IMG/VR virus record: IMGVR_UViG_2541047705_000011
Reading direction: 5' to 3' (one strand)
DNA from: a virus
Lineage: Duplodnaviria > Heunggongvirae > Uroviricota > Caudoviricetes
DNA: 42,469 nt
The notes under the pieces were generated by a model. That model was given only the letters and a program-made list of their open reading frames with translations, did no database searches and had not been told where the DNA came from. A program made the position numbers and the translations under genes. Shown here in pieces: positions 1,773 to 42,469 of this stretch (position 1 is its first letter; every line of letters begins with the position of its first letter).

Positions 1773-2398
1773 ACCGCCAGCACCTTACTGGCAGTGATGT
1801 ACCGCGCTCGCCGGTCGTCGATGCCGTTCCGGCCACCATTGATAATCAGAGTTACACGTGCAATATCGCCGGTATACTTCATGCATCCTTTGCTGGCGAA
1901 GAACCACGCCGCGCTACGAGCCGCATATTCGTCCTGCGCCAGCAGTTCAGGGCTCTCCAGCAGGTCAACCTTCAGACCGTTTCCGCAATCACGATAGTTA
2001 TTCAAACCGGTAATCTGGATAAGTCCGCGCCCTCGGTAATTCCAGCCATCACCAGGGGCATTGTTCCCCATGCGTTTGCTGTATACCAGATTTGCGATCG
2101 CGCGCTGGCGCTCAAGTGGCAATGGTGGTTCACCAGCACGGCGCCCCAGTGCATTAGCCTGCCCCTGAGTGAGACGCCCAGCCAGAACGAAGTTAGCCAG
2201 TCCGCTGACACTGTAGTTGAAATTCTCCTGCAACCTGGTGAAGCCCCCAGACTCATGCCCGACTTGAGCAATAAACATTGCCTGATCTTCTGCTTTGCTG
2301 ATACCAAACTCTTTCATCGCAGAAGTTATATGCGAGAACCAGCGTGCGGCCAGTGCCTCGCTGATACCAGCAGCTCGCTGGAATTGTTTAATCTCCAT
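1769..2398 (-). CDS. Endolysin, glycoside hydrolase family 19 (chitinase-like)
   Basis: Motifs GHESGGF and [12 protein letters not shown]; start trimmed to ATG at 2398 (MEIKQF); ORF-track N-terminal extension discarded. Confidence 0.8.
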
Positions 2399-2696
2399 GT
2401 TTAGACCTCGATACTTTAAAAATTTGAACGACGTTACCGCGCGTTTTAATAACCGCAGCCAGCATGACAGCGTTGATAATGACCTCAGATAAATCCACAG
2501 CCATTGGCGTACGTAACCAGATTGCATAGGCGACTCGAACAGGAATACTGGCCGCAGCAACAATCAGGAAATAAGCAAGCCATCCTCCCCACCTTCGATG
2601 TTGAGAGCCGTTACGCCGGAATGTGACAACGCGAATTGCTATGCCAGTGCAAATAACTGCATTAGTGATAAGCAAAAAAAACTCATGCGTTACCAT
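2388..2696 (-). CDS. Small lysis-associated membrane protein (second holin or antiholin candidate)
   Basis: About 102 aa with 2-3 hydrophobic segments between holin and endolysin; overlaps both neighbours. Confidence 0.5.
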
Positions 2697-3087
2697 CGTC
2701 TTTTCTCCCCGGAATTAACTCGCGTGGATTATCGGAACGGTGATAGAGCCATATACCAATACGCACAGCGACAATTGCTGACACGAATGCGCCTGCAGAG
2801 AAAACAATCCCTTTTTCAAAAGAGTCCTGCGTGATGGTAGGGATCAGGCTGGCTATGCCGATAAGAATTGATGCTGCTGGTTTGTAAAAGAGAAGGCCGC
2901 AAAGAAAGCTGAGCATCGACAGGAGCACCCGGCGACGGATGGGGTACTCTACTGCAGAGGTAACAAAAATTACCGCCCCAGCCAAAGCCCCTAAAGCAAC
3001 CTCCGGAGGGACACCTGCAATAACTGCAGCAAGAGAACCAAAACTAAGCAACTGATTTAATTGCTCACTTGTTACTTGAGCAGACAT
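2683..3087 (-). CDS. Holin
   Basis: 134 aa, multiple TM segments, charged C-terminus; RBS AGGAG 6 nt upstream; first gene of lysis cassette. Confidence 0.65.
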   Translation of the reverse strand: MSAQVTSEQLNQLLSFGSLAAVIAGVPPEVALGALAGAVIFVTSAVEYPIRRRVLLSMLSFLCGLLFYKPAASILIGIASLIPTITQDSFEKGIVFSAGAFVSAIVAVRIGIWLYHRSDNPRELIPGRKDDGNA

Positions 3088-3368: not shown

Positions 3369-3395
3369 CCCGCAATATTTTGCGGGCTTTTTTTT
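3369..3395 (+). terminator. Hairpin plus T8, canonical only in plus orientation, at tailspike 3' end
   Basis: CCCGCAA-TATT-TTGCGGG then C and T8; the T-run overlaps the tailspike stop codon; no plus-strand CDS upstream. Confidence 0.45.
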
Positions 3396-6300
3396 AACGT
3401 TCTTCCAGAGACTGAACCCGCTCTTTTATCTTATCCATTTCTCTGCGCTGCCATGCTGCCTCGATATAGAATAAGAGATCAGGTCTGACCCCCCATCTAG
3501 ATCCTGCTGGCGTTATTTCAACGCGCTCAATGATGTCTTCCATTACCATCACTGGATTATCATCCTCATCAACAATGATGCTCCCGTCATTATCAGTCAG
3601 CGGCATTTCCCTTTGGCCAGTAATGACGTCATCATATACTGCGGGATAATCGTCATAGCAAAGAAAGGCATAGCGGCATGTTGTGCTTTCTTCTTCCATG
3701 AGTCCGTGAGAAATAAGAACATCACGAAGTTGCTGCGCGATTACACCATGATGTATCCTCGCCCCTTCTTCCCCCTTTATAGCGACAGCGTTCAGCCATT
3801 TATAAGCGATATACCTGACGTCACCCCAGGCATCCAGCAATGCTTCGTCAGGAGAGACCGGCTCTGTCTTTAATGTTCCGTCACTGGTAACCACAGGATT
3901 GGAGCCAAGATAAACTGTCGAGAACCTGTTTCCCGGACCACCAAGAGCATTTACATTATCAAGATAAGGTTTAACATCTCCGTTCTCAAAAAGATGTTCG
4001 AGTGCGTTATATACCGCGCGACGTGGAGTACTGCTTCCGGAACCATGCAACGTTATCATTGCACCATCTGCTGAAGACGTTGTTTCACCTCCGCTAACGA
4101 TTAATCTCTGAGCGGTAACATCATCAGACGGTACTTTCTTCGCAATAATGGCGTAATTACCCTCAAGTTTGACTTCCGCGCGAACTTGTCCTGATGTACC
4201 TGCATGGACAGTCAGTGACTGGACGGCAACATCATCTGTGAAATCAACGGGTACAGGAACCGTCCTCACGCCTGACGTCGACATAAAAGTAGGAAGCGTT
4301 CTGTTAGGAGTGGCTCCGTAGACAAAATCCCTTGAAACAAATTCTTCCTGTTTAATTTTCACCCTGAAACAATACAAATCAGCCGGGTGACCATCGTGAA
4401 CATAAGGATATTTTCTGTTGTTATCCCCTATGCTCCATGGGTTTAGAAAGTCTTCCCCACCGAAAATGTAGTACAGCCAGTTGTCTTTGATACAAACTGA
4501 ACCAACACCAACCGCAGAGTTAACTATTCCGCCCTGATAAATCTGATCAGTAACATTAACCCACTCTACATTATCCAGACTCCACTCATTGACGTTAACT
4601 CTGGTCATAAATGTTCTTGGATAATTTCCTGCATAACGGTTATCAGGTTCTCCTCCTTCCCACTCACCAAATGCGCGCTCACTGCCAAAAATAATCAGCT
4701 CATCGCCAACTTTGGCAAAAGGAAGGTTTGAGTGATGAACATTATTTGGGAAGCGAAGAGAATTCCATGATGTACCTAAATCAGAGCTTCTGTGCAATGA
4801 ACTACCGGGTTGAGTACTTAATGTCCCCCTGGTCGTCAGATACAGAATGCCATCATAATATTTTACACATGGCTCAGATGCATTCGCCTCATATTCTGCA
4901 GGTATGCGTCTGCGAACAAAGCTACCAGGAGAACCGAAAGCATCAGAGAAATAGAGTATCCCAAGCTCGCGTGGACCAATATCACCATTATGGTAGCCAA
5001 CAGCAAAACTGTTATCGCTAATCGTCGCAAAACTGTGAATCTCAGTAACAGGAGTGCTTCCGTCAACAAAAGAAGGAATAGTTCCAAGACTGGTTTTTCT
5101 CCATGGTGACGAGTGAAATGATGTACCAAAACTCCAGTATCTACCCTCGTTATTCTGATCCACATCCTGGGTATTTTGCGTCGTAACTGTAAAAGTATTT
5201 TTATCAATAACAGTAGTCACCGTCATATTCCCGGTAACACCTGTAACACCAGAGTTTGAGAAGTTGACAAAATCACCAGCAAATAATCCGTGATCAGTAA
5301 TGCGAATATAAGCGACTTGCTGATTTGCTGCTTTCGTTATACCACCATAAACGCGAAGGCTGCGACTCATTGGGCGATCCCACAACTCTGCAACCTGCAG
5401 TTTATTTCCGCTCACGGTCCGCGTCTCAATTACAGCAAAAAGGCGATTTCTGACAACCCCCATACTCATGCAGTGATAGTTAACTGTGGGATAGTTTTCA
5501 TGTAAATCTGTAAGCCATTCCGGCGTTGTCCAGGTCTTCCCGTCATCTCCTGAGCGAACCCATGCAACATGGAGGTTATTTACACCATGGCGGTCTCCAG
5601 CCATAAAAGGCGCATAGATGACATTGTCATATACAAACGTTTTATCCTGCGTCCAGGCGTTGTACCACGGTGTATCTGTAATTTTAAATAACTCTCCCTG
5701 GATAAAATCTTCAGAAGCATAAAAAAGAGGCTGGCCCGGTATTCTCTCAAATAAAAAACGAGCATTTTTAAATCGACTGACATCCGGAAGAGTTGATACT
5801 TTAAAAGTAAGCCCTAATCCGTCAATTTTATAACCTGGAGATGAGGCTTCAAGGCACGCGCTTATTGCAGTGGAATCGTCATTTATACCATCACCAACAG
5901 CTCCAAAATCTTTGGGGCTAATAGCATCACGCATTTTATCCTGGAACGTTCGGTACACAGCCCCAGAACCATACTGAATAAACCAACCAAAACCACCAAC
6001 AACCCCGGCGATTGCAGCATCGACATAATTACGCATTGAGCGATTATTTACAGCGTCCTGCTCAAATGATGGATCTGCAAGGTTAGAAATTTTGTTTTGC
6101 TTTGCATCGTAATATTTTGCAAGCAAAGATGGTTTCATCAATGCACGTCTGAACCACCCAAAACATTGCTGGATCAGCATCGTCAGGTAGTCAAAGGCAT
6201 CTTCATGCACTTCGGGGAAAAATTTTCCCTGATTGCGAAGGTCTGTCTCCTGCACTACATCAAGCACACGATCTATCGTAATTCGCCATCCAGTAGCAAG

Positions 6301-6513
6301 CGGAGACGGAAGAACCACAGAACCGCCACTATAAGTGCCCGCCCCAGTTACCGTATAACCGGTATCCAGAACCAATTCTGTTACGTTCCCGTTCAGGTCA
6401 GACACCTGAACAACCAGGTCTGATTTTCTGAAAATTCGAAAAGTATACGGAAACGATGTCGTAACGCCGTTACCGGTGTATTCGTTGTGGTCAACTTCGG
6501 TTGAGACCGTCAT
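3394..6513 (-). CDS. Tailspike, endosialidase-like (endo-N-acetylneuraminidase) with C-terminal intramolecular chaperone
   Basis: 1039 aa; N-terminus has T7 tail-fibre-like pattern YxGxG..F..F..LVV; two Asp-boxes SGDDGKTW and SSDLGTSW; C-terminal SDGTLK and HHGVIAQQLRDV resemble the autocleaving chaperone of endosialidases. Confidence 0.7.
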   Translation of the reverse strand: MTVSTEVDHNEYTGNGVTTSFPYTFRIFRKSDLVVQVSDLNGNVTELVLDTGYTVTGAGTYSGGSVVLPSPLATGWRITIDRVLDVVQETDLRNQGKFFPEVHEDAFDYLTMLIQQCFGWFRRALMKPSLLAKYYDAKQNKISNLADPSFEQDAVNNRSMRNYVDAAIAGVVGGFGWFIQYGSGAVYRTFQDKMRDAISPKDFGAVGDGINDDSTAISACLEASSPGYKIDGLGLTFKVSTLPDVSRFKNARFLFERIPGQPLFYASEDFIQGELFKITDTPWYNAWTQDKTFVYDNVIYAPFMAGDRHGVNNLHVAWVRSGDDGKTWTTPEWLTDLHENYPTVNYHCMSMGVVRNRLFAVIETRTVSGNKLQVAELWDRPMSRSLRVYGGITKAANQQVAYIRITDHGLFAGDFVNFSNSGVTGVTGNMTVTTVIDKNTFTVTTQNTQDVDQNNEGRYWSFGTSFHSSPWRKTSLGTIPSFVDGSTPVTEIHSFATISDNSFAVGYHNGDIGPRELGILYFSDAFGSPGSFVRRRIPAEYEANASEPCVKYYDGILYLTTRGTLSTQPGSSLHRSSDLGTSWNSLRFPNNVHHSNLPFAKVGDELIIFGSERAFGEWEGGEPDNRYAGNYPRTFMTRVNVNEWSLDNVEWVNVTDQIYQGGIVNSAVGVGSVCIKDNWLYYIFGGEDFLNPWSIGDNNRKYPYVHDGHPADLYCFRVKIKQEEFVSRDFVYGATPNRTLPTFMSTSGVRTVPVPVDFTDDVAVQSLTVHAGTSGQVRAEVKLEGNYAIIAKKVPSDDVTAQRLIVSGGETTSSADGAMITLHGSGSSTPRRAVYNALEHLFENGDVKPYLDNVNALGGPGNRFSTVYLGSNPVVTSDGTLKTEPVSPDEALLDAWGDVRYIAYKWLNAVAIKGEEGARIHHGVIAQQLRDVLISHGLMEEESTTCRYAFLCYDDYPAVYDDVITGQREMPLTDNDGSIIVDEDDNPVMVMEDIIERVEITPAGSRWGVRPDLLFYIEAAWQRREMDKIKERVQSLEER

Positions 6514-6589: not shown

Positions 6590-6616
6590 ATAGAAAGGCT
6601 GTAAATACGAATAGAT

Positions 6617-6633
6617 ATTACCTTTCAGGTAAT
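6617..6633. promoter_or_regulatory. Operator-like palindrome ATTACC-TTTCA-GGTAAT (perfect)
   Basis: Perfect 6-bp inverted arms, 5-bp spacer; between tailspike start and the LexA-box gene. Confidence 0.6.
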
Positions 6634-6669
6634 TTGCAAAACGTGCTGGATAGCAAACAAATTATTTGA

Positions 6670-6689
6670 TACTGTATAAATATACAGTT
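6670..6689. promoter_or_regulatory. LexA box (SOS operator)
   Basis: TACTGTATAAATATACAGTT, 18/20 to consensus TACTGTATATATATACAGTA (CTGT-N8-ACAG); 20 nt upstream of the 6709 start; possible -35 TTGATA overlaps. Confidence 0.75.
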
Positions 6690-6708
6690 ATTGCATGGAG
6701 AAGATAAG

Positions 6709-6966
6709 ATGCAGCAGTATCACTATCCACTGGAAGACGGATTTACCGAAAGGATTCACACGCCGGGAGGCGTCAGGTCACTGGTGGAGGGATCGCACTT
6801 GATGAAATTACTCCGGGATCTCGATAAGGATGGATTTAATGTCGATGGCCCACTTGCCGAACTGACTGCACTGATTAACTACGTCACCAGCTCACAGATG
6901 TCTATGCAGGATCTGCAAACACATCTCGACTATTGTGCCGAACAATTACGAAAACAAACCCGGTAA
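6709..6966 (+). CDS. Small antirepressor-like protein (homologous to C-terminal domain of the BRO antirepressor at 8113-8805)
   Basis: 85 aa from ATG 6709 (track ORF starts at TTG 6691); RBS GGAGAAG; aligns with the last ~60 aa of the BRO protein. Confidence 0.6.
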   Translation: MQQYHYPLEDGFTERIHTPGGVRSLVEGSHLMKLLRDLDKDGFNVDGPLAELTALINYVTSSQMSMQDLQTHLDYCAEQLRKQTR

Positions 6967-6972
6967 ATTTAA

Positions 6973-6990
6973 AGGCCGCAAGAGCGGCCT
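6973..6990 (-). terminator. Hairpin terminator between convergent genes
   Basis: AGGCCGC-AAGA-GCGGCCT; T-rich on minus strand downstream; overlaps the 6989-7717 stop codon. Confidence 0.45.
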
Positions 6991-7717
6991 ATCGTTTCGC
7001 TTTGTGCTCGTCCCAGCACGTTTTGCACCATGCCATTAAGCCGTCCGCATTTTGATTATTAGGGTAAAAGCTGGTCCGTTTTCTGCGGACATTACAAATT
7101 GGGCACCACTTCATATGGCGTGTATTCTTTGGACCATCGAGACACCTTGCACACCACTTAGTCAATCCATCTGGATTTTTTGACGATTTCCGGAATTTGT
7201 CATATGGAAGGTTTATTCTGCATCGCAAACACTGCTTGCGGCCACTTGAAACTCTGTTAGCTGATTCTTCTTTTGGCGGCGATACAGAAGGTATTCTTGC
7301 TGGCTCTGATACTGCCTGAGGTGCTTTTTTAGATGACTGAGACGATATGTCATCACCAGGGAATCTTCCATGATATGCCGGACGCGTTGACACTCCAGGT
7401 GGAAGCTCAGCTGTAAACGGCTTTGGCTGAATCAGTTGCCTCTCTTTTGCTAACTCCTGCTGTTTATAATATGTCTGGATTACCGCACTATCATAAGCAG
7501 GAGGTACGGAAATATCAGGCGCGTTACCTCCAGTTTTTTGAAACTGAGTAGATGTGTGTTCTATCACCTGTGTACGACTAATCGTTACCTCCCCATCTTC
7601 GGTCTTTATCGTTTTGTTCTGATTAACGACCGTACGATCAGAGATCTTAGTCTTGTTCTGGTTGATAACGTAAATAATCACCGCAACCACACCAACAACT
7701 ATCCAGAAAACTTCCAT
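6989..7717 (-). CDS. Membrane-anchored protein with two C-terminal zinc-ribbon repeats, unknown function
   Basis: N-terminal TM helix, Pro/Ser-rich linker, then CLRC..x22..WCARC and CPIC..x21..WCKTC; RBS GAGGAAAAG. Confidence 0.6.
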   Translation of the reverse strand: MEVFWIVVGVVAVIIYVINQNKTKISDRTVVNQNKTIKTEDGEVTISRTQVIEHTSTQFQKTGGNAPDISVPPAYDSAVIQTYYKQQELAKERQLIQPKPFTAELPPGVSTRPAYHGRFPGDDISSQSSKKAPQAVSEPARIPSVSPPKEESANRVSSGRKQCLRCRINLPYDKFRKSSKNPDGLTKWCARCLDGPKNTRHMKWCPICNVRRKRTSFYPNNQNADGLMAWCKTCWDEHKAKR

Positions 7718-7736
7718 TGCTTTTCCTCACAATAAC

Positions 7737-7753
7737 ATTACCTTAAAGGTAAT
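7737..7753. promoter_or_regulatory. Operator-like palindrome ATTACC-TTAAA-GGTAAT (perfect)
   Basis: 20 nt upstream of the 7717 start codon; possible -35 TTGATC 17 nt from TACCTT on minus strand. Confidence 0.6.
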
Positions 7754-7785
7754 ATCTTGCTTTCAGGTGATCAAGCGTTAAACGC

Positions 7786-7807
7786 AATCAACCAAATACG
7801 GTTGATT
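7786..7807. promoter_or_regulatory. Second-type palindrome AATCAACC-N6-GGTTGATT
   Basis: Perfect 8-bp inverted repeats with 6-bp spacer, between two ATTACC/GGTAAT sites. Confidence 0.4.
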
Positions 7808-7829
7808 TTAATATTTCTTCGCGTTTATC

Positions 7830-7846
7830 ATTACCTTTGCGGTAAA
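7830..7846. promoter_or_regulatory. Operator-like palindrome ATTACC-TTTGC-GGTAAA (11/12 arms)
   Basis: Same motif family; upstream of structured leader and BRO gene. Confidence 0.5.
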
Positions 7847-7864
7847 TTTACATCGCACTCCTCT

Positions 7865-7958
7865 TGTGCCATAGTAATCGGGCACTGGCAAAATCCAGTG
7901 CCGGGATTGGTCTCCCGGATTACTACAGAGGCACATATGCCGCATAAGCGGTTTTTTT
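7865..7958 (+). other. Candidate structured RNA/leader: three-way junction fold followed by short hairpin and T7 run
   Basis: Nested complementarity TGTGCC/GGCACA, GTAATC/GATTAC, GGCACTGG/CCAGTGCC, GGGA/TCCC; then CCGC-ATAA-GCGG plus TTTTTTT; about 155 nt upstream of BRO start. Confidence 0.3.
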
Positions 7959-8112
7959 ATGTGTAAAGCGCACCTATTCTATGGTGGGCTGTGTGGGGGC
8001 ACCGAAAGGTGCGCCGGGTTCCTTTGTAGCCGGTAAGACCAACTCTGCACAGTTCACCACCATCTGATTGGTCTCAGCGGTGGTGATTAACCTAACTACA
8101 AAGGTGATCGCT

Positions 8113-8805
8113 ATGAATACCAAACCTTCCATCTTTTCCTTTGAGTCATCCTGCCAGATCCGTATGTTCATGATTGACGGAGAACCTTGGTTTGTCACCA
8201 AAGATGTGTGCAATGCTTTGAATATTGATGTTACACAAGCGAGAAAACTTGATAAAAAAGGCTGGAACAAAAAGGGGCTGTATTCAATACAGACCCCTGG
8301 TGGAATACAAGAACTATCCATCGTTTCAGAATCAGGTCTCTACATCCTTATTCTGCGTTGCAAAGAGGCAATGACTGAGGGAACGAGAGCATTCAGATTT
8401 CTTGAATGGGTTACAGGTGAGGTTCTTCCTCAGATCCGCCGCACCGGAAGTTACATTAAAAACTCGCTCCCGCAGGAAGAACGCATAAAGATGGTTGCCG
8501 ACCAGGTAGCCAACGCCACGGCGTCAGCAGTAATGCAGGCGATGAAGATAGAGAACAAAACCTACAGTGCCCCACTGAAGCCCGGCTACCGTAGCCTGAT
8601 TCATTCGCCGTCTGGTGTTCTCGGCCTGACGGAGAACTCACTGCTGATGAATCTGCTGAACCAGTTACAGGACGACGGGCACGACGTATCGGGCGCGGCG
8701 GCGGAGCTGACCACCATGTTCTGCTACATCGTCGGTGTGAGCAAATGCCTGCGTGATATCCAGACCCACGCGGAGTACATCAACGACAAGGCAGGGTTCT
8801 TCTGA
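8113..8805 (+). CDS. BRO-N domain antirepressor
   Basis: BRO-N motif FSFESSCQIRMFMIDGEPWFVTKDVCNAL; RBS AAGGTGA; start trimmed to ATG 8113; C-terminal domain homologous to the 6709-6966 protein. Confidence 0.75.
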   Translation: MNTKPSIFSFESSCQIRMFMIDGEPWFVTKDVCNALNIDVTQARKLDKKGWNKKGLYSIQTPGGIQELSIVSESGLYILILRCKEAMTEGTRAFRFLEWVTGEVLPQIRRTGSYIKNSLPQEERIKMVADQVANATASAVMQAMKIENKTYSAPLKPGYRSLIHSPSGVLGLTENSLLMNLLNQLQDDGHDVSGAAAELTTMFCYIVGVSKCLRDIQTHAEYINDKAGFF

Positions 8806-8875
8806 CGGCGGCGGCACAGGGACGTGCCTTTAAATAATTCTGTACAGATTGCAGACTGGGGGTGAATAGCGTACT

Positions 8876-8892
8876 ATTACCTCAAGGGTAAG
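8876..8892. promoter_or_regulatory. Operator-like palindrome ATTACC-TCAAG-GGTAAG
   Basis: 11/12 arm match; 59 nt upstream of the 8951 start. Confidence 0.5.
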
Positions 8893-8950: not shown

Positions 8951-9583
8951 ATGAGAACAAATACAACAAGAAAAGCGATGCCATACATTATCCCAGAAGC
9001 AGATTTCGATAGAAAACTGAACATGTCTGAGAAGAACACTAGTCACACCGAAAGCTACTTAGCGAAAGGTGTGGTTGATTTCGTTCTTCCGGGATTCACA
9101 ACACCTTATGGTTATCGCCTTGTAAAATCTTGTAATGGCGATCATTACAGAATGATTACTACCAGCGATACTCCAGAAACGGTGTATGCGGTTAAGTTAA
9201 TCTTTCGGGAAGATATCGTCGAAGCCAAAAGAACATGTACGCAGATCATGGTATGGCGTACGCCTAATGTTATTCATGACCGTGCTGTTCATGGTTTGCC
9301 TCAGATTTTTTTTCAGTTCTTCCTAGAGCAATATGCGATCGTTGTATCTGATGAGCAACAAACAATCGATGGGAGAAGATTCTGGGAAAGAATGATTTCT
9401 TGGGCTATAAACACCCCGGGATATAATGTATACGTTTCAGATGGCTCTGAAGAAGATAGACCTCTTAGCTTCATGACATCATGGGATGATTTCTATAGCC
9501 AGTGGGCTGATTTCTGTTGGGGCAGTGATAAAGATGTGCATACCCACAGACTACTGGTTATAAGCAAAGATAAACTGCATTAA
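8951..9583 (+). CDS. Hypothetical protein (210 aa), accessory/moron gene, no recognisable family
   Basis: ORF track; RBS GGGAGG; AT-rich; flanked by operator-like site upstream and terminator downstream. Confidence 0.6.
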   Translation: MRTNTTRKAMPYIIPEADFDRKLNMSEKNTSHTESYLAKGVVDFVLPGFTTPYGYRLVKSCNGDHYRMITTSDTPETVYAVKLIFREDIVEAKRTCTQIMVWRTPNVIHDRAVHGLPQIFFQFFLEQYAIVVSDEQQTIDGRRFWERMISWAINTPGYNVYVSDGSEEDRPLSFMTSWDDFYSQWADFCWGSDKDVHTHRLLVISKDKLH

Positions 9584-9866: not shown

Positions 9867-9878
9867 GTGACATGTCAC
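9867..9878. repeat. Perfect 12-bp palindrome GTGACATGTCAC (copy 1 of 3)
   Basis: Overlaps lipoprotein stop codon; identical copies at 28357-28368 and 30808-30819. Confidence 0.8.
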
Positions 9879-10255
9879 GCAACGCAATTATTACCGCGCC
9901 ATGTAACATTTTTAATAATCTTATCAGCACCAAACTCAACGTAAACAGAGCAACTGAAATGGAGTGTATAACCGCCATCAGTTGTTGCGTATGTGTTTGA
10001 ATATATAGTATTACCAATTAGATTAGACGTAGTATTATACGTTGTGGTTTGTGGTACGTTATAACTACCAGAGCTTGAGTAAACATACACTCTGTTTCCA
10101 TCTGGAGATGTAAGCTCTCCCTGAGGATACCCCCACTGCTGAACCATTGCGTCTATACTCTGCCCGCGCCACGTAAGCATATTTCTTTCAAACTGTGCAA
10201 CTGACTGGCATCCAACGAGAAGCATAAATCCAAAAATCAAAAATACTTTTCTCAT
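9875..10255 (-). CDS. Lipoprotein (126 aa), candidate superinfection-exclusion/moron protein
   Basis: Start MRKVFLIFGFMLLVGC (lipobox); RBS AGGGG; Thr/Ser/Tyr/Asn-rich mature part; IS1 lies 66 bp upstream of its start. Confidence 0.6.
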   Translation of the reverse strand: MRKVFLIFGFMLLVGCQSVAQFERNMLTWRGQSIDAMVQQWGYPQGELTSPDGNRVYVYSSSGSYNVPQTTTYNTTSNLIGNTIYSNTYATTDGGYTLHFSCSVYVEFGADKIIKNVTWRGNNCVA

Positions 10256-10375
10256 AATTACCCCTATCATGGAAAAACAGCACCAATCCACAAATTAACT
10301 AGTTATTTTATTATTCTTCCGGTGATGCTGCCAACTTACTGATTTAGTGTATGATGGTGTTTTTGAGGTGCTCCA

Positions 10376-10651
10376 GTGGCTTCTGTTTCTATCAGCTGTC
10401 CCTCCTGTTCAGCTACTGACGGGGTGGTGCGTAACGGCAAAAGCACCGCCGGACATCAGCGCTATCTCTGCTCTCACTGCCGTAAAACATGGCAACTGCA
10501 GTTCACTTACACCGCTTCTCAACCCGGTACGCACCAGAAAATCATTGATATGGCCATGAATGGCGTTGGATGCCGGGCAACCGCCCGCATTATGGGCGTT
10601 GGCCTCAACACGATTTTACGTCACTTAAAAAACTCAGGCCGCAGTCGGTAA
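10376..10651 (+). CDS. insA: IS1 InsA
   Basis: Sequence recognised as IS1 InsA ([32 protein letters not shown]...). Confidence 0.95.
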
Positions 10652-11073
10652 CCTCGCGCATACAGCCGGGCAGTGACGTCATCGTCTGCGCGGAAATGGA
10701 CGAACAGTGGGGCTATGTCGGGGCTAAATCGCGCCAGCGCTGGCTGTTTTACGCGTATGACAGTCTCCGGAAGACGGTTGTTGCGCACGTATTCGGTGAA
10801 CGCACTATGGCGACGCTGGGGCGTCTTATGAGCCTGCTGTCACCCTTTGACGTGGTGATATGGATGACGGATGGCTGGCCGCTGTATGAATCCCGCCTGA
10901 AGGGAAAGCTGCACGTAATCAGCAAGCGATATACGCAGCGAATTGAGCGGCATAACCTGAATCTGAGGCAGCACCTGGCACGGCTGGGACGGAAGTCGCT
11001 GTCGTTCTCAAAATCGGTGGAGCTGCATGACAAAGTCATCGGGCATTATCTGAACATAAAACACTATCAATAA
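10570..11073 (+). CDS. insB: IS1 InsB reading frame (expressed as InsAB' fusion by -1 frameshift)
   Basis: Sequence recognised as IS1 InsB; slippery TTAAAAAACTC upstream in the InsA frame. Confidence 0.9.
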
Positions 11074-23286: not shown

Positions 23287-23337
23287 CTTCTTTCTCCATT
23301 AGTGGGTCTGTTACGACCCACAGGTTAATAACAGGCG

Positions 23338-27298: not shown

Positions 27299-27327
27299 TT
27301 GACATTTAACGCACAAATTATTACCTT
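27299..27327 (+). promoter_or_regulatory. Sigma70-like promoter directed toward tRNA-Arg
   Basis: -35 TTGACA, 17-bp spacer, -10 TACCTT, overlapped by an operator-like palindrome. Confidence 0.5.
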
Positions 27328-27657: not shown

Positions 27658-27734
27658 GTGGCATTAGCTCAGTCGGACAGAGCAACCGCCTTCTAAGCGG
27701 TTGGTCGCAGGTTCGAATCCTGCATGCCACGCCA
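27658..27734 (+). tRNA. Phage-encoded tRNA-Arg (anticodon UCU)
   Basis: 77-nt cloverleaf: acceptor GTGGCAT/ATGCCAC, D-stem GCTC/GAGC, anticodon stem ACCGC/GCGGT with loop CTTCTAA, T-arm GCAGG-TTCGAAT-CCTGC, discriminator G, encoded CCA. Confidence 0.9.
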
Positions 27735-29918: not shown

Positions 29919-30511
29919 TGATTGCCATCCTGACGTTCTTTCAGTCTCTTCCTGGCTGCCGCTATGCGATCAGCAATTGTCACATTCACATTAACATCCA
30001 GGCGTTCTTTGAATGCGTTGACGTCGACGTGCTTACCAATCAGTTCGAGGTTCTTCACCTTGTCAGGCCATTTAATTTTTTTGAGGATTGTCTCTATCGA
30101 ATCCTCGTTCATGTTCATGATGGTCGATGACAGATCAAAGCCGCTAAGCGTAGTGCGCCAGATTTTCGGCCACTCTCGGATTGGCTTAAGGCTACCATCG
30201 TCGTTGAGGATGTCGATCACGTCCATCTGGTCGATCTCCACCAGGCGCATGAGAACGTAATCAGCACTGACGCGCATTCGTTTGTTGCGCTCCTCCATCA
30301 ACTCGGCAATCCGTTTCTGAATGCGTTCATCGCGCATCATGACACTGGCTTTAACTGCCGCTGTATTTGGGGAGAATCCTGCATTAATCGCTGCCTGAGT
30401 CTGGTTTTCAGGCGTTTTGATGTATGACTGGCAATAAGCCTCCTGCATTGCTGTTAGTGGCTTAAATTGCGTTGATTTGCGTTTATAGGTTTTAGGTTCA
30501 GCAGGCATCAT
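29915..30511 (-). CDS. Terminase small subunit
   Basis: Start trimmed to ATG 30511 (MMPAEPKTYKRK); track ORF starts at TTG 30589 with no RBS; overlaps large-subunit start. Confidence 0.65.
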   Translation of the reverse strand: MMPAEPKTYKRKSTQFKPLTAMQEAYCQSYIKTPENQTQAAINAGFSPNTAAVKASVMMRDERIQKRIAELMEERNKRMRVSADYVLMRLVEIDQMDVIDILNDDGSLKPIREWPKIWRTTLSGFDLSSTIMNMNEDSIETILKKIKWPDKVKNLELIGKHVDVNAFKERLDVNVNVTIADRIAAARKRLKERQDGNQ

Positions 30512-36168: not shown

Positions 36169-36399
36169 TCATGAGTAGAAGAAGTATGCCAGTTCTGCTT
36201 TTGAGCGCAACCATTGTCTTGATTTACAGGCTTTAAAAAGCCCATTCATCAATACCTTACCTGGCATTTTGCGCTTACCTGTTAAGTGAGTCTGGATATA
36301 GTGACTCGTCGTTCCGGCTTCCTGTGCGAAGGCTTCACGCTCATCCGGAGTGAGTGCAAGCCAGTGCTTTTTGAAATCGAAATGTCCGTTATCGCTCAT
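36169..36399 (-). CDS. Cro-like HTH regulator
   Basis: 76 aa; HTH FAQEAGTTSHYIQTHLTG; divergent from CI-like gene, points toward O/P. Confidence 0.65.
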   Translation of the reverse strand: MSDNGHFDFKKHWLALTPDEREAFAQEAGTTSHYIQTHLTGKRKMPGKVLMNGLFKACKSRQWLRSKAELAYFFYS

Positions 36400-36434: not shown

Positions 36435-36499
36435 TTCACCCATAAGGTAACAAAAATCAAGGATAGTTACCTATGAGGTGCATTTACCTGTTGGGTAAT
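36435..36499. promoter_or_regulatory. Immunity-region operator cluster (three sites)
   Basis: 36435-36451 TTCACC-CATAA-GGTAAC; 36466-36482 GTTACC-TATGA-GGTGCA; 36483-36499 TTTACC-TGTTG-GGTAAT; candidate Cro-side promoter -35 TTGTTA / -10 TATTAT on minus strand. Confidence 0.6.
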
Positions 36500-36553: not shown

Positions 36554-37138
36554 ATGAAAAGTATCCAGGACGTCCGCAGGCAAAATCTCAACGACTTGAT
36601 CGACCGTGAATTCAATGGTGTTCAGACGCGGATGGCAGAAAAACTTGGAACTCAGGCAAATCTGGTAAACCGCTGGGCTCTTGGCAAGAAGGTTATCGGC
36701 GACCAGGTTGCGCGAAAAATTGAAGCTGCCGCCAATAAACCCCGTAACTGGCTTGATATCGATCGCTCGCTTTCTCAGGAAGGTTTTCAGCCTGTCGGCC
36801 CAAGCGACATTGGTCAGCTGGCGGCTCACAACCTGGAACGCTGGATGAGCGAAAGCCGCGACCTTTCAACACAGGGAAAACTTCACCGCGCATCCGGCGT
36901 CGCCCAGGTGACAATCAGCCGCCTGTTAAACAATGAGGTCAGCGTTTCCATTTCCACCCTGGAGAATGTTGCATCCGCATTCGGGCGTCACGGATATGAA
37001 CTACTGATTCACCCGCACGACCCTGCGACTATCAACTATGACCGCTCGCGCTACGCATTGTTACCCGAAACCGAGAAAGCAAAGATCGAAAGTTACATTG
37101 AATTTGTCATCAACCAGAACGAAAAAAACAAACAATAA
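36554..37138 (+). CDS. CI-like repressor with two HTH domains and no recognisable S24 peptidase domain
   Basis: 194 aa; HTH segments TRMAEKLGTQANLVNRW and LHRASGVAQVTISRLLN; no Ser-Lys autocleavage module seen; weak SD. Confidence 0.65.
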   Translation: MKSIQDVRRQNLNDLIDREFNGVQTRMAEKLGTQANLVNRWALGKKVIGDQVARKIEAAANKPRNWLDIDRSLSQEGFQPVGPSDIGQLAAHNLERWMSESRDLSTQGKLHRASGVAQVTISRLLNNEVSVSISTLENVASAFGRHGYELLIHPHDPATINYDRSRYALLPETEKAKIESYIEFVINQNEKNKQ

Positions 37139-37194: not shown

Positions 37195-37211
37195 ATTACC
37201 TAATGGGTAAT
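37195..37211. promoter_or_regulatory. Operator-like palindrome ATTACC-TAATG-GGTAAT (perfect)
   Basis: 19 nt upstream of the early promoter -35. Confidence 0.6.
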
Positions 37212-37229
37212 TTTTTTAACTCATATCTA

Positions 37230-37258
37230 TTGACATCAAACCAGATACGCATAATTAT
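37230..37258 (+). promoter_or_regulatory. Early promoter for the plus-strand early operon
   Basis: -35 TTGACA, 17-bp spacer, -10 AATTAT; flanked by operator-like palindromes. Confidence 0.55.
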
Positions 37259-37273
37259 TACCTCAACGGTAAC
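37257..37273. promoter_or_regulatory. Operator-like palindrome ATTACC-TCAAC-GGTAAC
   Basis: Overlaps -10/+1 of the early promoter. Confidence 0.55.
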
Positions 37274-41218: not shown

Positions 41219-42469
41219 TTATTCCCCCGCCATCCACTTCTCAAACGTCGACGGGGAGAACGGAATCAGATCCGTATGCTCCCCGTCAATCCATGAATCA
41301 ATCATATCGGCCCACTGCTGCAACATGTAGGCGCGCTGTCTGGCGTATTCCGCTTTGTTATATACGGCGCGCACACCTTTCTGCTCATGTGCCAGAGCCT
41401 TTTCAATCCAGTCTGAAGGATAACCAGCCTCATGCAACAACGTACTGGCTGTACGGCGCATATCATGTACAGTGAAGTCCTGAATATGCTCACCATCTTC
41501 ATTTATTATTTTCACCGTTCTGTCGATCAGAGAGTTCAGCGCGGCATTAGATAATGGCTTCCGGAAATTGTAACGACCAGGAACCAGATATTCACTTCCA
41601 CCAGCGCACATCTGCAACCCGACCAATATATCCTGTGCCTGTTTAGGCAGGTAAATAACGTGCGCCCGGCTTCCCTTCATGCGGTCTGGAGGAATTGTCC
41701 ATGTCCATTTTTTAAAATCTATTTCATCCCACGTTGCATTGGTGAATTCGCCCTTACGAACCATAGTGATAAGCACCAGTTTTAAAGCCATTTTCATAGT
41801 GCCCATAGCACCAATGGCATCCAGCGTGCGGAAGAATAGGCCAATTTCTTCTGGTGTCAGTGTTCGCTCTCGTGGTTTAAATATGGCGATAGACGAAGGT
41901 TTAATGTCAGCCGCAGGATTAAACAAACCATGACCACGGTCATTGGCGTGACGGTATACGCTACTGATGATCTCCCTGGCCTGCACTGCTGTTGCCCGGC
42001 CACCGCGTTCGACAATCCGGTCACACAAATCACGAACCATCGATGTGGTAATTTCAGCCATCATTTTATTGCCAAGAACCGGAAGTATGTCACGGTCGAT
42101 CACCGCCTGTTTCATTGCGCGGGTACTGTCAGCCAGGATGACGTGTTTCATATAACTGTCGGTATGTACCGCAAACGTCTCGGCACCACGAATCTTTTTG
42201 ATACCGTCACGTTTAGCCGCAGCCGGTGACTGGCCTGCTTTAAGCAGCTTCTTTGCAGCAATCAGTTCTTCTCGCGCTTCTGCCAGGCTGATACCGTCAC
42301 GCCCATACTGCCCGATTACCAGTGTTTCGCGGCGACCGTTGATACGGTAGTCATAGCGAAACGAGACCGTGCCTGACGTAAGCACAGCTACATACAGCCC
42401 GTCACGATCGGAGACCTTGTACAGTTTGTCCTGCGGCTTGAGGTTTTTTAATTTTGTATCGGTAAGCAC
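41219..42469 (-). CDS. Tyrosine integrase (P4-like), N-terminus at window edge
   Basis: N-terminal LTDTKLKNLKPQDKLYKVSDRDGLYV; catalytic HDMRRTAST and C-terminal Tyr region; first codon GTG at 42467-42469, true start may lie outside the window. Confidence 0.85.
   Translation of the reverse strand: MLTDTKLKNLKPQDKLYKVSDRDGLYVAVLTSGTVSFRYDYRINGRRETLVIGQYGRDGISLAEAREELIAAKKLLKAGQSPAAAKRDGIKKIRGAETFAVHTDSYMKHVILADSTRAMKQAVIDRDILPVLGNKMMAEITTSMVRDLCDRIVERGGRATAVQAREIISSVYRHANDRGHGLFNPAADIKPSSIAIFKPRERTLTPEEIGLFFRTLDAIGAMGTMKMALKLVLITMVRKGEFTNATWDEIDFKKWTWTIPPDRMKGSRAHVIYLPKQAQDILVGLQMCAGGSEYLVPGRYNFRKPLSNAALNSLIDRTVKIINEDGEHIQDFTVHDMRRTASTLLHEAGYPSDWIEKALAHEQKGVRAVYNKAEYARQRAYMLQQWADMIDSWIDGEHTDLIPFSPSTFEKWMAGE

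Follow-up and report, generated by a model that had tools for sequence, protein, structure and literature searches.

In several Salmonella prophages, SPC32H among them, self-cleavage of LexA leads to production of an antirepressor, which inhibits the phage repressor by protein–protein contact (PMC7380047). The repressor in question, Rep, is a tetramer on DNA, with DNA-binding pairs drawn from different dimers; the antirepressor, Ant, also a tetramer, engages two Rep dimers and disrupts the Rep tetramer (PMC9638917). Tetramerization and Ant binding both belong to the C-terminal domain of Rep (PMC9986798), and the SPC32H-type mechanism is also summarized in a 2025 preprint. Here we describe the lysis–lysogeny switch encoded in IMG/VR record IMGVR_UViG_2541047705_000011, a stretch of viral DNA of 42,469 nucleotides that we call the window. 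An earlier reading of its letters alone (the original prediction) had pointed to a LexA box and a small antirepressor-like gene at 6670–6966. The switch is very probably an SPC32H-type antirepression system in which a second, larger antirepressor, Ant2, would provide a reinforcing arm.

The core of this mechanism is already known. LexA-controlled antirepression of a non-cleavable repressor has been established for the Gifsy phages and, with crystal structures (PDB 5D50 and 5D4Z), for SPC32H (Kim & Ryu 2013, J Virol 87:11775; Kim et al. 2016, PNAS 113:E2480). The Gifsy-1/-3 antirepressors GfoA and GfhA (PMC3121763) and Tum of coliphage 186 share with the system described here a non-cleavable repressor, an antirepressor gene outside the immunity region and direct control by LexA.

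A second kind of control, by RNA, is also relevant to this locus. Phages P1 and P7 share c1, differ in c4 and are hence heteroimmune. In the design of their immI locus (c4–icd–ant), the a′ and b′ elements of the C4 RNA are set against an upstream and a downstream pair of targets (Citron & Schuster 1990, summarized in bioRxiv 10.1101/2020.03.17.996009). In Gifsy-1, where the order is isrK–orf45(STnc1160)–anrP, IsrK has its own terminator and read-through leads to a processed RNA and an antirepressor-like gene (PMC4825925); a LexA-controlled antirepressor is also present there, which gives that prophage two arms, as in the window (PMC3121763). The APSE phages of Hamiltonella carry the same cassette of isrK, c4 and a BRO-N gene as the window, and the a′ and b′ elements of their C4 match non-coding sequence that precedes the BRO-N gene. 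They belong to another phage lineage, and no link to an SPC32H-type Rep/Ant pair has been reported for them (bioRxiv 10.1101/2020.03.17.996009).

Results

The repressor has no self-cleavage module

By its matches at the ant region and the immunity region, the window phage belongs to the epsilon15/phiV10 group of temperate podoviruses (genus Uetakevirus). Its nearest relatives are phiV10, TL-2011b, ZX5 and EC.W1-9, with DNA identity of 92–99 per cent over the shared parts. With lysis genes at its left end and an integrase at 41219–42469, the window looks like a complete E. coli prophage. For this sequence we computed homologies, conservation of the LexA box, RNA families, base-pairing and covariation, and palindrome enrichment. 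Coordinates of the features are collected in Table 1.

The 194-residue product of rep matches chain A of PDB 5D50 (‘Repressor’) over residues 1–190 (E = 4e-42), and its C-terminal half matches the fragment crystallized as 5D4Z. Identity to SPC32H Rep is 42 per cent overall, 53 per cent in the N-terminal domain and 38 per cent in the C-terminal domain. The N-terminal domain is reportedly the DNA-binding one. Within its own group Rep is 100 per cent identical to phiV10 p40, and the ZX5 repressor has been reported to be identical to that of phiV10 (PMC9782041).

Rep was originally described as a CI-like protein with tandem helix–turn–helix (HTH) motifs and no S24 module, and this description holds. 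There are two HTH-type regions, a weaker, YdaS-like one at residues 21–61 and an HTH_3 at 106–147, while NCBIfam gave sub-threshold HTH matches only. Peptidase_S24 (PF00717) had no match in Rep at E <= 0.1, and the sequence contains no Ala-Gly or Cys-Gly dipeptide. With neither the S24 domain nor the cleavage site, Rep falls outside the S24 self-cleaving repressors of the lambda CI/LexA type. A single-sequence AlphaFold2 model of Rep (mean predicted local distance difference test 44.9, predicted template modelling score 0.22) was uninformative and was not used. The question of an S24 fold, raised together with the original prediction, is instead settled by the solved structure of the full-length homologue (5D50_A). 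Self-cleavage of Rep under stimulation by RecA, on the pattern of lambda CI and with the antirepressors as accessories, would be the default model for an SOS-inducible temperate phage, and we found no specific support for it. Besides the missing peptidase and cleavage site, the whole 194-residue chain is explained by the solved homologue as HTH plus a tetramerization and Ant-binding domain (PMC9986798), and we give self-cleavage next to no chance of being correct.

A LexA box precedes an orthologue of SPC32H Ant

The small gene encodes an 85-residue protein that is 88 per cent identical to SPC32H_020, annotated as ‘ant: anti-repressor protein’, and matches chain E of PDB 5D50 (‘Anti-repressor protein’) with 83 of 85 residues aligned (E = 4e-47). 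It is intact in all 35 matching phage records, and the ZX5 protein is 100 per cent identical. The order of the tailspike gene (minus strand) and ant (plus strand) is the same in the window, SPC32H, epsilon15 and phiV10; ant is divergent from the tailspike gene and lies outside the immunity region. In the 12 best-matching E. coli genomes the gene is labelled ‘hypothetical protein’, as it is in GenBank/RefSeq records of E. coli phages. PADLOC matched neither Ant nor Ant2, and none of the accessory genes nearby. No sequence relationship to GfoA/GfhA or Tum was detected, as Ant has no Pfam or NCBIfam family match; their phage type and repressor family also differ, and they are analogues of the window Ant, not members of its family.

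The near-consensus SOS box in front of the gene is confirmed, with two mismatches and a gap of 19 nucleotides (nt) to the ant ATG at 6709, not 20 as first given. The Shine–Dalgarno sequence of ant, GGAG, lies at 6697–6700. In the 42 kb of the window this is the only site with three or fewer mismatches, where 0.01 would be expected, and one of 100 shuffled sequences gave a match. The core pattern CTGT-N8-ACAG is present in three copies (0.71 expected), of which only the one at 6670–6689 has an AT-rich spacer and TA flanks. The other two, at 23308 and 27850, were considered as LexA boxes and rejected for their GC-rich spacers and chance-level count.

We aligned the tailspike–ant intergenic region of 11 sequences (the window, phiV10, TL-2011b, ZX5, SPC32H, epsilon15, Tyrion, BUCT554 and three Klebsiella phages). 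The box is found at the same place in all of them, including the SPC32H box. The TACTGT and ACAGT arms are invariant and the central eight bases vary freely in the eight sequences from E. coli, Salmonella and Enterobacter; in the three Klebsiella phages, ATGT replaces CTGT. Invariant arms around a variable spacer are what would be expected of a site kept for LexA, not of descent alone.

The promoter of ant is a weaker call. A standard scan found no 9/12 promoter before the gene, and the candidate TGGATA-17-TACTGT came only from the lenient scan. A CTGGATAG block 17 nt upstream of the box, kept across the aligned phages, is a plausible −35. The −10 of the predicted promoter, TACTGT, is the left arm of the LexA box, and for this reason we infer that LexA would occlude the ant promoter by overlapping its −10. 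The 2025 preprint mentioned above, which studied DNA-damaging bacteriocins, reports that one of them, microcin Mcc1229, induces phiV10-type prophages of gut E. coli 21- and 47-fold, which is consistent with SOS control.

Ant also resembles the C-terminal part of the 230-residue Ant2, encoded downstream. The original prediction had noticed this likeness and put it at about 60 residues; the likeness stands, and its extent is larger, with 42 per cent identity over 74 residues (Ant2 residues 149–222, E = 1e-15). The small gene could accordingly be seen as a decayed partial duplicate of the BRO-N gene, with a fortuitous LexA box and the 230-residue protein as the only real antirepressor: it equals just the C-terminal third of Ant2, carries the ‘hypothetical protein’ label in E. 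coli phages and genomes, and was passed over by the ZX5 study, which tested the BRO-N protein only (PMC9782041). Decay of this kind is very improbable for a gene that is unbroken in every matching record, has kept its LexA box in every aligned relative, is far better conserved than rep and encodes a protein 88 per cent identical to a crystallized, named antirepressor. Moreover, the fetched loci of SPC32H, epsilon15, BUCT554 and BUCT711 contain neither the isrK/C4 module nor an annotated BRO-N antirepressor gene.

A second antirepressor joins BRO-N to an Ant-like domain

The gene at 8113–8805 had been named as a BRO-N antirepressor under separate control, and both parts of that claim agree with our results. 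Pfam recognizes Bro-N near the N-terminus, and the C-terminal 77 residues match PDB 5D50_E (E = 1.6e-13). Across six small Ants and four Ant2 C-termini, 20 positions are invariant. NCBIfam has no model for Ant2, and neither antirepressor groups with P22 Ant, as P22_AR_N reached 17.6 bits on Ant2 against a cutoff of 30.7 and had no match on Ant. A BRO-N match was returned for 1069 phage records; in just 18 of them does it extend over 80 per cent or more of Ant2, and all the listed ones are Uetakevirus-type, which points to the lineage’s own Rep-binding domain as the fusion partner. Ant2 would presumably inactivate the same Rep as Ant.

The ZX5 homologue is 80 per cent identical to Ant2. Its overexpression lowered the prophage count from 1e9 to 1e6, or about 1000-fold lower lysogeny, and repressor transcription by 75 per cent; the study does not mention LexA, the small Ant or the RNAs described below (PMC9782041). 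In phiV10 the ant2 homologue is split into p23 (194 residues) and p22 (29 residues) at phiV10 2376–3055. The split interrupts the Ant-like C-terminal domain, and the second arm of phiV10 may be defective.

An IsrK/C4 RNA leader stands in front of ant2

Separate control of ant2 would come from its own predicted promoter and an antisense-RNA leader. An Rfam scan identified the IsrK and C4 RNA genes between a 242-residue minus-strand gene and ant2. The IsrK-like RNA has the two 5′ hairpins and the terminator of its family, and the intrinsic terminator was also found by a terminator scan. A second LexA box driving ant2 was considered and rejected, as no other box with three or fewer mismatches occurs in the window.

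Two short, exposed elements of C4 each face two targets. The first, CCUUUGUAG, is perfectly complementary to CUACAAAGG at 8096–8104, which overlaps the ant2 Shine–Dalgarno sequence AAGGUGA (ATG at 8113), and also pairs with CUACAGAGG at 7923–7931 inside IsrK (nine pairs, one of them G-U). The second, AGACCAA, is perfectly complementary to UUGGUCU both at 8068–8074 and at 7907–7913 (7/7 each).

The module is present in the window, phiV10, TL-2011b, ZX5, Tyrion and two Klebsiella phages (seven copies), and was not found in the four fetched loci named above. Its copies differ in the b′ element and its targets: GACCAA:UUGGUC in the window, Tyrion and KpST512; CGCCAA:UUGGCG, with both targets alike, in phiV10, TL-2011b and ZX5; and UCUCAA:UUGAGA in Kp4865-1. 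In the phiV10 group a single base is also missing from a′, as is its counterpart in each of a1 and a2. Of the alignment cells, 100 per cent are paired for b′:b1 and 98.9 per cent for b′:b2, with 4/7 and 2/7 pairs, respectively, changed on both sides; when the partner is slid by 1–3 columns, pairing falls to 23–50 per cent. For a set of this size the comparisons are suggestive more than statistically strong; they point to C4/target pairing maintained through compensatory change, and the triple co-variation is hard to explain otherwise.

The read-through RNA from IsrK to the ant2 start (7882–8120, plus strand) folds at −99.4 kcal/mol (z = −5.2 against shuffles), and its minimum-energy structure has the antisense elements of C4 paired in cis with their targets in IsrK. 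The modelled fold hints at alternative cis and trans structures such as those described for Gifsy-1. We also observed a 28-codon open reading frame (ORF) at 7981–8067 (plus strand), wholly inside C4, with a TGA at 8065 where phiV10 and ZX5 have CGA. It stops 46 nt before ant2; the ZX5 equivalent, a longer version annotated as ‘ash family protein’, reaches 6 nt before ant2, and length is not conserved. This ORF may be the counterpart of Gifsy-1 orf45 or P1 icd, or a mis-annotated RNA gene.

The arrangement resembles P1/P7 immI in having a C4 RNA (RF01695) upstream of an antirepressor gene, with two antisense elements that each face an upstream and a downstream site and with the downstream pair at the ribosome-binding region. 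It differs in that the targets lie on the ant2 Shine–Dalgarno sequence, whereas in P1/P7 they lie on that of icd, and no icd-like gene is evident in the window; the antirepressor here is a BRO-N::Ant-like fusion, and the phage is a podovirus. Compared with Gifsy-1, the leader ORF stops short of ant2, which makes orf45-type translational coupling doubtful in the window.

The neighbourhood of the module also varies. In phiV10 and Tyrion, ant runs straight on to the operator-like palindrome (see below) and the isrK promoter, and no T-run terminator separates them. The window and TL-2011b have an insertion there, made up of the convergent 242-residue gene (6989–7717) and the GC hairpin at 6973–6990, and therefore read-through from the LexA-controlled promoter into ant2 is least likely in the window phage.

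A repeated palindrome is a candidate Rep operator

The palindrome TTACC-N5-GGTAA has 11 perfect copies in the window, where 0.2–0.8 are expected, and none of 100 shuffles reached that count. No palindrome is more enriched in SPC32H (10 copies) or in phiV10 (eight copies), where it occupies syntenic places. The perfect copies start at 6618, 7738, 7831, 8877, 27321, 30529, 34091, 34153, 36484, 37196 and 37258, and imperfect ones at 30511 and 36436 (one mismatch each) and 36467 (two mismatches). They are intergenic and often paired 48–93 bp apart. The copy at 8877 lies after ant2, and copies are most crowded on either side of rep (36436/36467/36484 and 37196/37258). From this distribution, the palindrome is probably the Rep operator, with sites flanking rep and at other phage promoters. 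Copies also stand before late operons, at terS (30511/30529), the portal region (27321) and the tailspike gene (6618), which suggests a direct action on late promoters as well, by Rep or by whichever protein recognizes the palindrome.

Those late-operon copies would also suit a regulator other than Rep, for instance a late-gene activator or the cro-like protein, in which case ant2 would be outside Rep control. SPC32H and the window have the same half-sites, though their Rep N-terminal domains are only 53 per cent identical, and the ‘protein_bind: repressor’ labels in the epsilon15 GenBank record are themselves the annotators’ prediction. Against such a regulator, the densest clusters flank rep in the manner of OL and OR, and paired sites are expected of a tetramer that binds two palindromes (PMC9638917). 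We consider a non-Rep binder unlikely, if a serious contender.

If the palindrome is the Rep operator, the isrK–C4–ant2 operon would be shut in the lysogen and open only after Ant removes Rep. This bears on whether Ant2 might be the main inducer in the E. coli lineage, answering SOS-independent signals through IsrK as in Gifsy-1 IsrK/AnrP and leaving the LexA–Ant arm redundant. Spontaneous induction of Gifsy-1 in stationary phase depends on the isrK promoter, and expression of AnrP induces the prophage (PMC4825925); ZX5 lysogens spontaneously release about 1e7 plaque-forming units per mL, and lysogeny falls when Ant2 is overexpressed (PMC9782041). However, the isrK promoter of the window abuts the operator-like palindrome and is hence probably shut in the lysogen, ant2 is split in phiV10, and no Ant2-related gene occurs in the fetched SPC32H and epsilon15 loci, of which SPC32H has a characterized LexA/Ant switch. 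A leading role for Ant2 is thus quite unlikely, and we retain the LexA-controlled Ant as the trigger.

Distribution and neighbouring genes

Of 5426 complete E. coli genomes, 542 have a match to the region 6600–8810, with ant, the RNA module and ant2; in 103 of the 5426 at least 80 per cent of it is covered, the 242-residue gene included. This gene encodes a protein with a hydrophobic helix at its N-terminus and, towards its C-terminus, two Cys-rich repeats that resemble Zn ribbons. The protein belongs to phrog_6762, with weak endonuclease VII, Lar-like and Stc1 matches and no PADLOC match. An operator-like palindrome lies 20 nt upstream of the gene, which separates ant from the isrK promoter. 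The gene is missing from phiV10 and ZX5, and in TL-2011b its place is marked by no more than a non-coding ‘similar to hypothetical protein’ feature.

The tailspike (3394–6513, minus strand) is an endosialidase: it carries the complete set of four endosialidase Pfam domains and an S74 chaperone. This domain content implies specificity for the K1 polysialic-acid capsule, as reported for ZX5. After ant2 come a 210-residue protein (8951–9583, plus strand; phrog_1349), with the palindrome at 8877 in front of it, and a 138-residue protein (9875–10291, minus strand) whose N-terminus resembles a lipoprotein signal sequence; Pfam and PADLOC gave no match for either. In the accessory region between ant2 and the structural genes, the ORF at 10570–11073 (plus strand) encodes an IS1 transposase (DDE_Tnp_IS1, E = 6e-78) and is an insertion sequence within the prophage. 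A tRNA-Arg gene (anticodon TCT; 27658–27734, plus strand) adjoins the palindrome at 27321, as in SPC32H.

Table 1. Features of the switch in the window, with position, strand and supporting evidence
Feature	Position	Strand	Evidence
Palindrome between tailspike gene and ant	6618–6632		Perfect copy; present in all 11 aligned phages; epsilon15 syntenic site labelled ‘protein_bind: repressor’
Predicted ant promoter	6647–6675	+	−35 TGGATA, 17-nt spacer, −10 TACTGT; lenient hexamer scan, 7/12
LexA (SOS) box TACTGTATAAATATACAGTT	6670–6689		2/20 mismatches to the E. coli consensus TACTGTATATATATACAGTA
ant, 85-residue antirepressor, SPC32H Ant orthologue	6709–6966	+	PDB 5D50_E; phrog_450, E = 9e-48
GC-rich hairpin between ant and the convergent 242-residue gene	6973–6990		T-run on minus strand only
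Palindrome 20 nt upstream of the 242-residue minus-strand gene	7738–7752		Perfect copy
Palindrome abutting −35 of the isrK promoter	7831–7845		Perfect copy; same arrangement in phiV10 and Tyrion
Predicted isrK/C4/ant2 promoter	7847–7875	+	TTTACA, 17-nt spacer, (TG)CATAGT; ends 7 nt before IsrK 5′ end; kept in Tyrion
IsrK-like small RNA with own terminator	7882–7958	+	Rfam RF01394, 74.7 bits (gathering 50), full length
Upstream C4 targets in IsrK	b1 7907–7913; a1 7923–7931	+	Complementarity to C4 elements
C4 antisense RNA	7977–8064	+	Rfam RF01695, 78.6 bits (gathering 45), full model length
C4 antisense elements CCUUUGUAG and AGACCAA	8021–8029; 8036–8042	+	Pairing and covariation
Downstream C4 targets b2 UUGGUCU and a2 CUACAAAGG	8068–8074; 8096–8104	+	7/7 and 9/9 Watson–Crick pairs
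ant2, 230-residue BRO-N and Ant-like fusion	8113–8805	+	BRO-N at 16–106 (Pfam E = 1.8e-13); Ant-like C-terminal domain at 149–225
cro-like early gene, divergent from rep	36169–36399	−	phrog_35 transcriptional repressor, E = 7.7e-12; syntenic with SPC32H_042
Candidate operator cluster between cro-like gene and rep	36436–36498		36436 (1 mismatch), 36467 (2 mismatches), 36484 (perfect)
rep, 194-residue non-cleavable repressor, SPC32H Rep orthologue	36554–37138	+	PDB 5D50_A match
Palindrome pair just 3′ of rep, before rightward early operon	37196–37272		Syntenic epsilon15 sites annotated as repressor-binding

Discussion

SOS induction by a LexA-controlled antirepressor, in place of repressor cleavage, was the central proposal of the original prediction, and it gains support here because each element maps onto the SPC32H Rep/Ant/LexA switch. 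All four features of such a system that can be read from sequence are present: Ant, Rep, the LexA box and an ant gene outside the immunity region. The window shares with SPC32H its genus, the gene order, the position of the LexA box, an Ant of 88 per cent identity and full-length homology of Rep. It differs in the lower identity of Rep, in its E. coli host, in a small gene that is un-named in E. coli records, and in the isrK–C4–ant2 module and Zn-ribbon insert, which the fetched SPC32H locus lacks.

From these comparisons we infer that LexA binds its box, that Ant and Ant2 bind Rep and that Rep binds the palindrome, and we infer a course of events, which would be as follows. In the lysogen, Rep, a two-domain HTH protein without a protease domain, would keep the phage silent, while host LexA would occupy the SOS box over the predicted ant −10. 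DNA damage would activate RecA, LexA would cleave itself and the 85-residue Ant would be made. Ant would then bind Rep and remove it from DNA, allowing lytic growth without repressor cleavage. Ant2, with its BRO-N and Ant-like domains, most likely targets the same Rep. Its own promoter, abutting the Rep-operator-like palindrome, would drive the IsrK-like RNA, then the C4 antisense RNA and then ant2. C4 would pair with two short sequences, one of them over the ant2 ribosome-binding site, and block translation, whereas IsrK may offer decoy copies of both C4 targets. Ant2 would thus be made only once Rep is off its promoter and C4 has been out-titrated, which would make it a reinforcing or anti-immunity arm and not the SOS trigger. 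An incoming phage that shares its C4 type with a resident prophage would also be expected to have its ant2 silenced by the resident’s C4.

Several observations weigh against this picture. Rep is only 42 per cent identical to SPC32H Rep, and 38 per cent in the Ant-binding C-terminal domain, and for that reason the Ant–Rep interface is extrapolated from SPC32H. The hexamers of the ant promoter are weak (7/12), and the promoter is a predicted one only. The palindrome at 6618–6632 overlaps neither of the predicted core promoters, which makes its role at ant ambiguous. In the RNA leader, RF03163 (c4-a1b1) at 7869–7921 scores 39.9 bits, just below its gathering threshold of 46.7, and the covariation comes from seven sequences of three types only. 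Finally, the ZX5 experiment was one of gross overexpression, with prophage count and repressor transcription as its readouts (PMC9782041).

The uneven conservation of the two partners is an observation in its own right: Ant is 88 per cent identical to SPC32H Ant, yet its target has diverged to the degree just given. Either the interface depends on few conserved residues, or Ant is constrained otherwise, by its own tetramer or by cross-talk with several repressors.

What is new in this locus is the detail of its second arm, a BRO-N::Ant-like fusion behind an under-described IsrK/C4 RNA gate. The window thereby links three systems that were described separately: SPC32H Rep/Ant, P1 immI and Gifsy-1 IsrK/AnrP. 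The practical value lies in annotation and scope, as this is a widespread E. coli member of the family whose small gene is un-named and whose Ant has no Pfam or NCBIfam model. In the sole experimental paper on an E. coli member, on ZX5, the small Ant and the LexA box both went unnoticed (PMC9782041).

Tentatively, and at somewhat less than even chances, the Uetakeviruses of E. coli and of Enterobacter and Klebsiella may use two-tier antirepression built on one Rep-binding domain, with the C4/IsrK gate as a second, exchangeable immunity determinant. The first tier would be the free-standing, LexA-controlled Ant as SOS trigger, and the second the BRO-N fusion, behind a promoter guarded by a Rep operator and the C4/IsrK gate. 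An exchangeable RNA gate is suggested because the same Rep is found in the window phage and phiV10 (and that of ZX5 is reported to be the same), yet their co-varying C4/target types differ, with at least three types overall. If this is true, a superinfecting phage of foreign C4 type would express Ant2 and break resident immunity, as P7 does to P1. Co-varying C4 types under one repressor make a second immunity of the P1/P7 style testable in a small, tractable podovirus.

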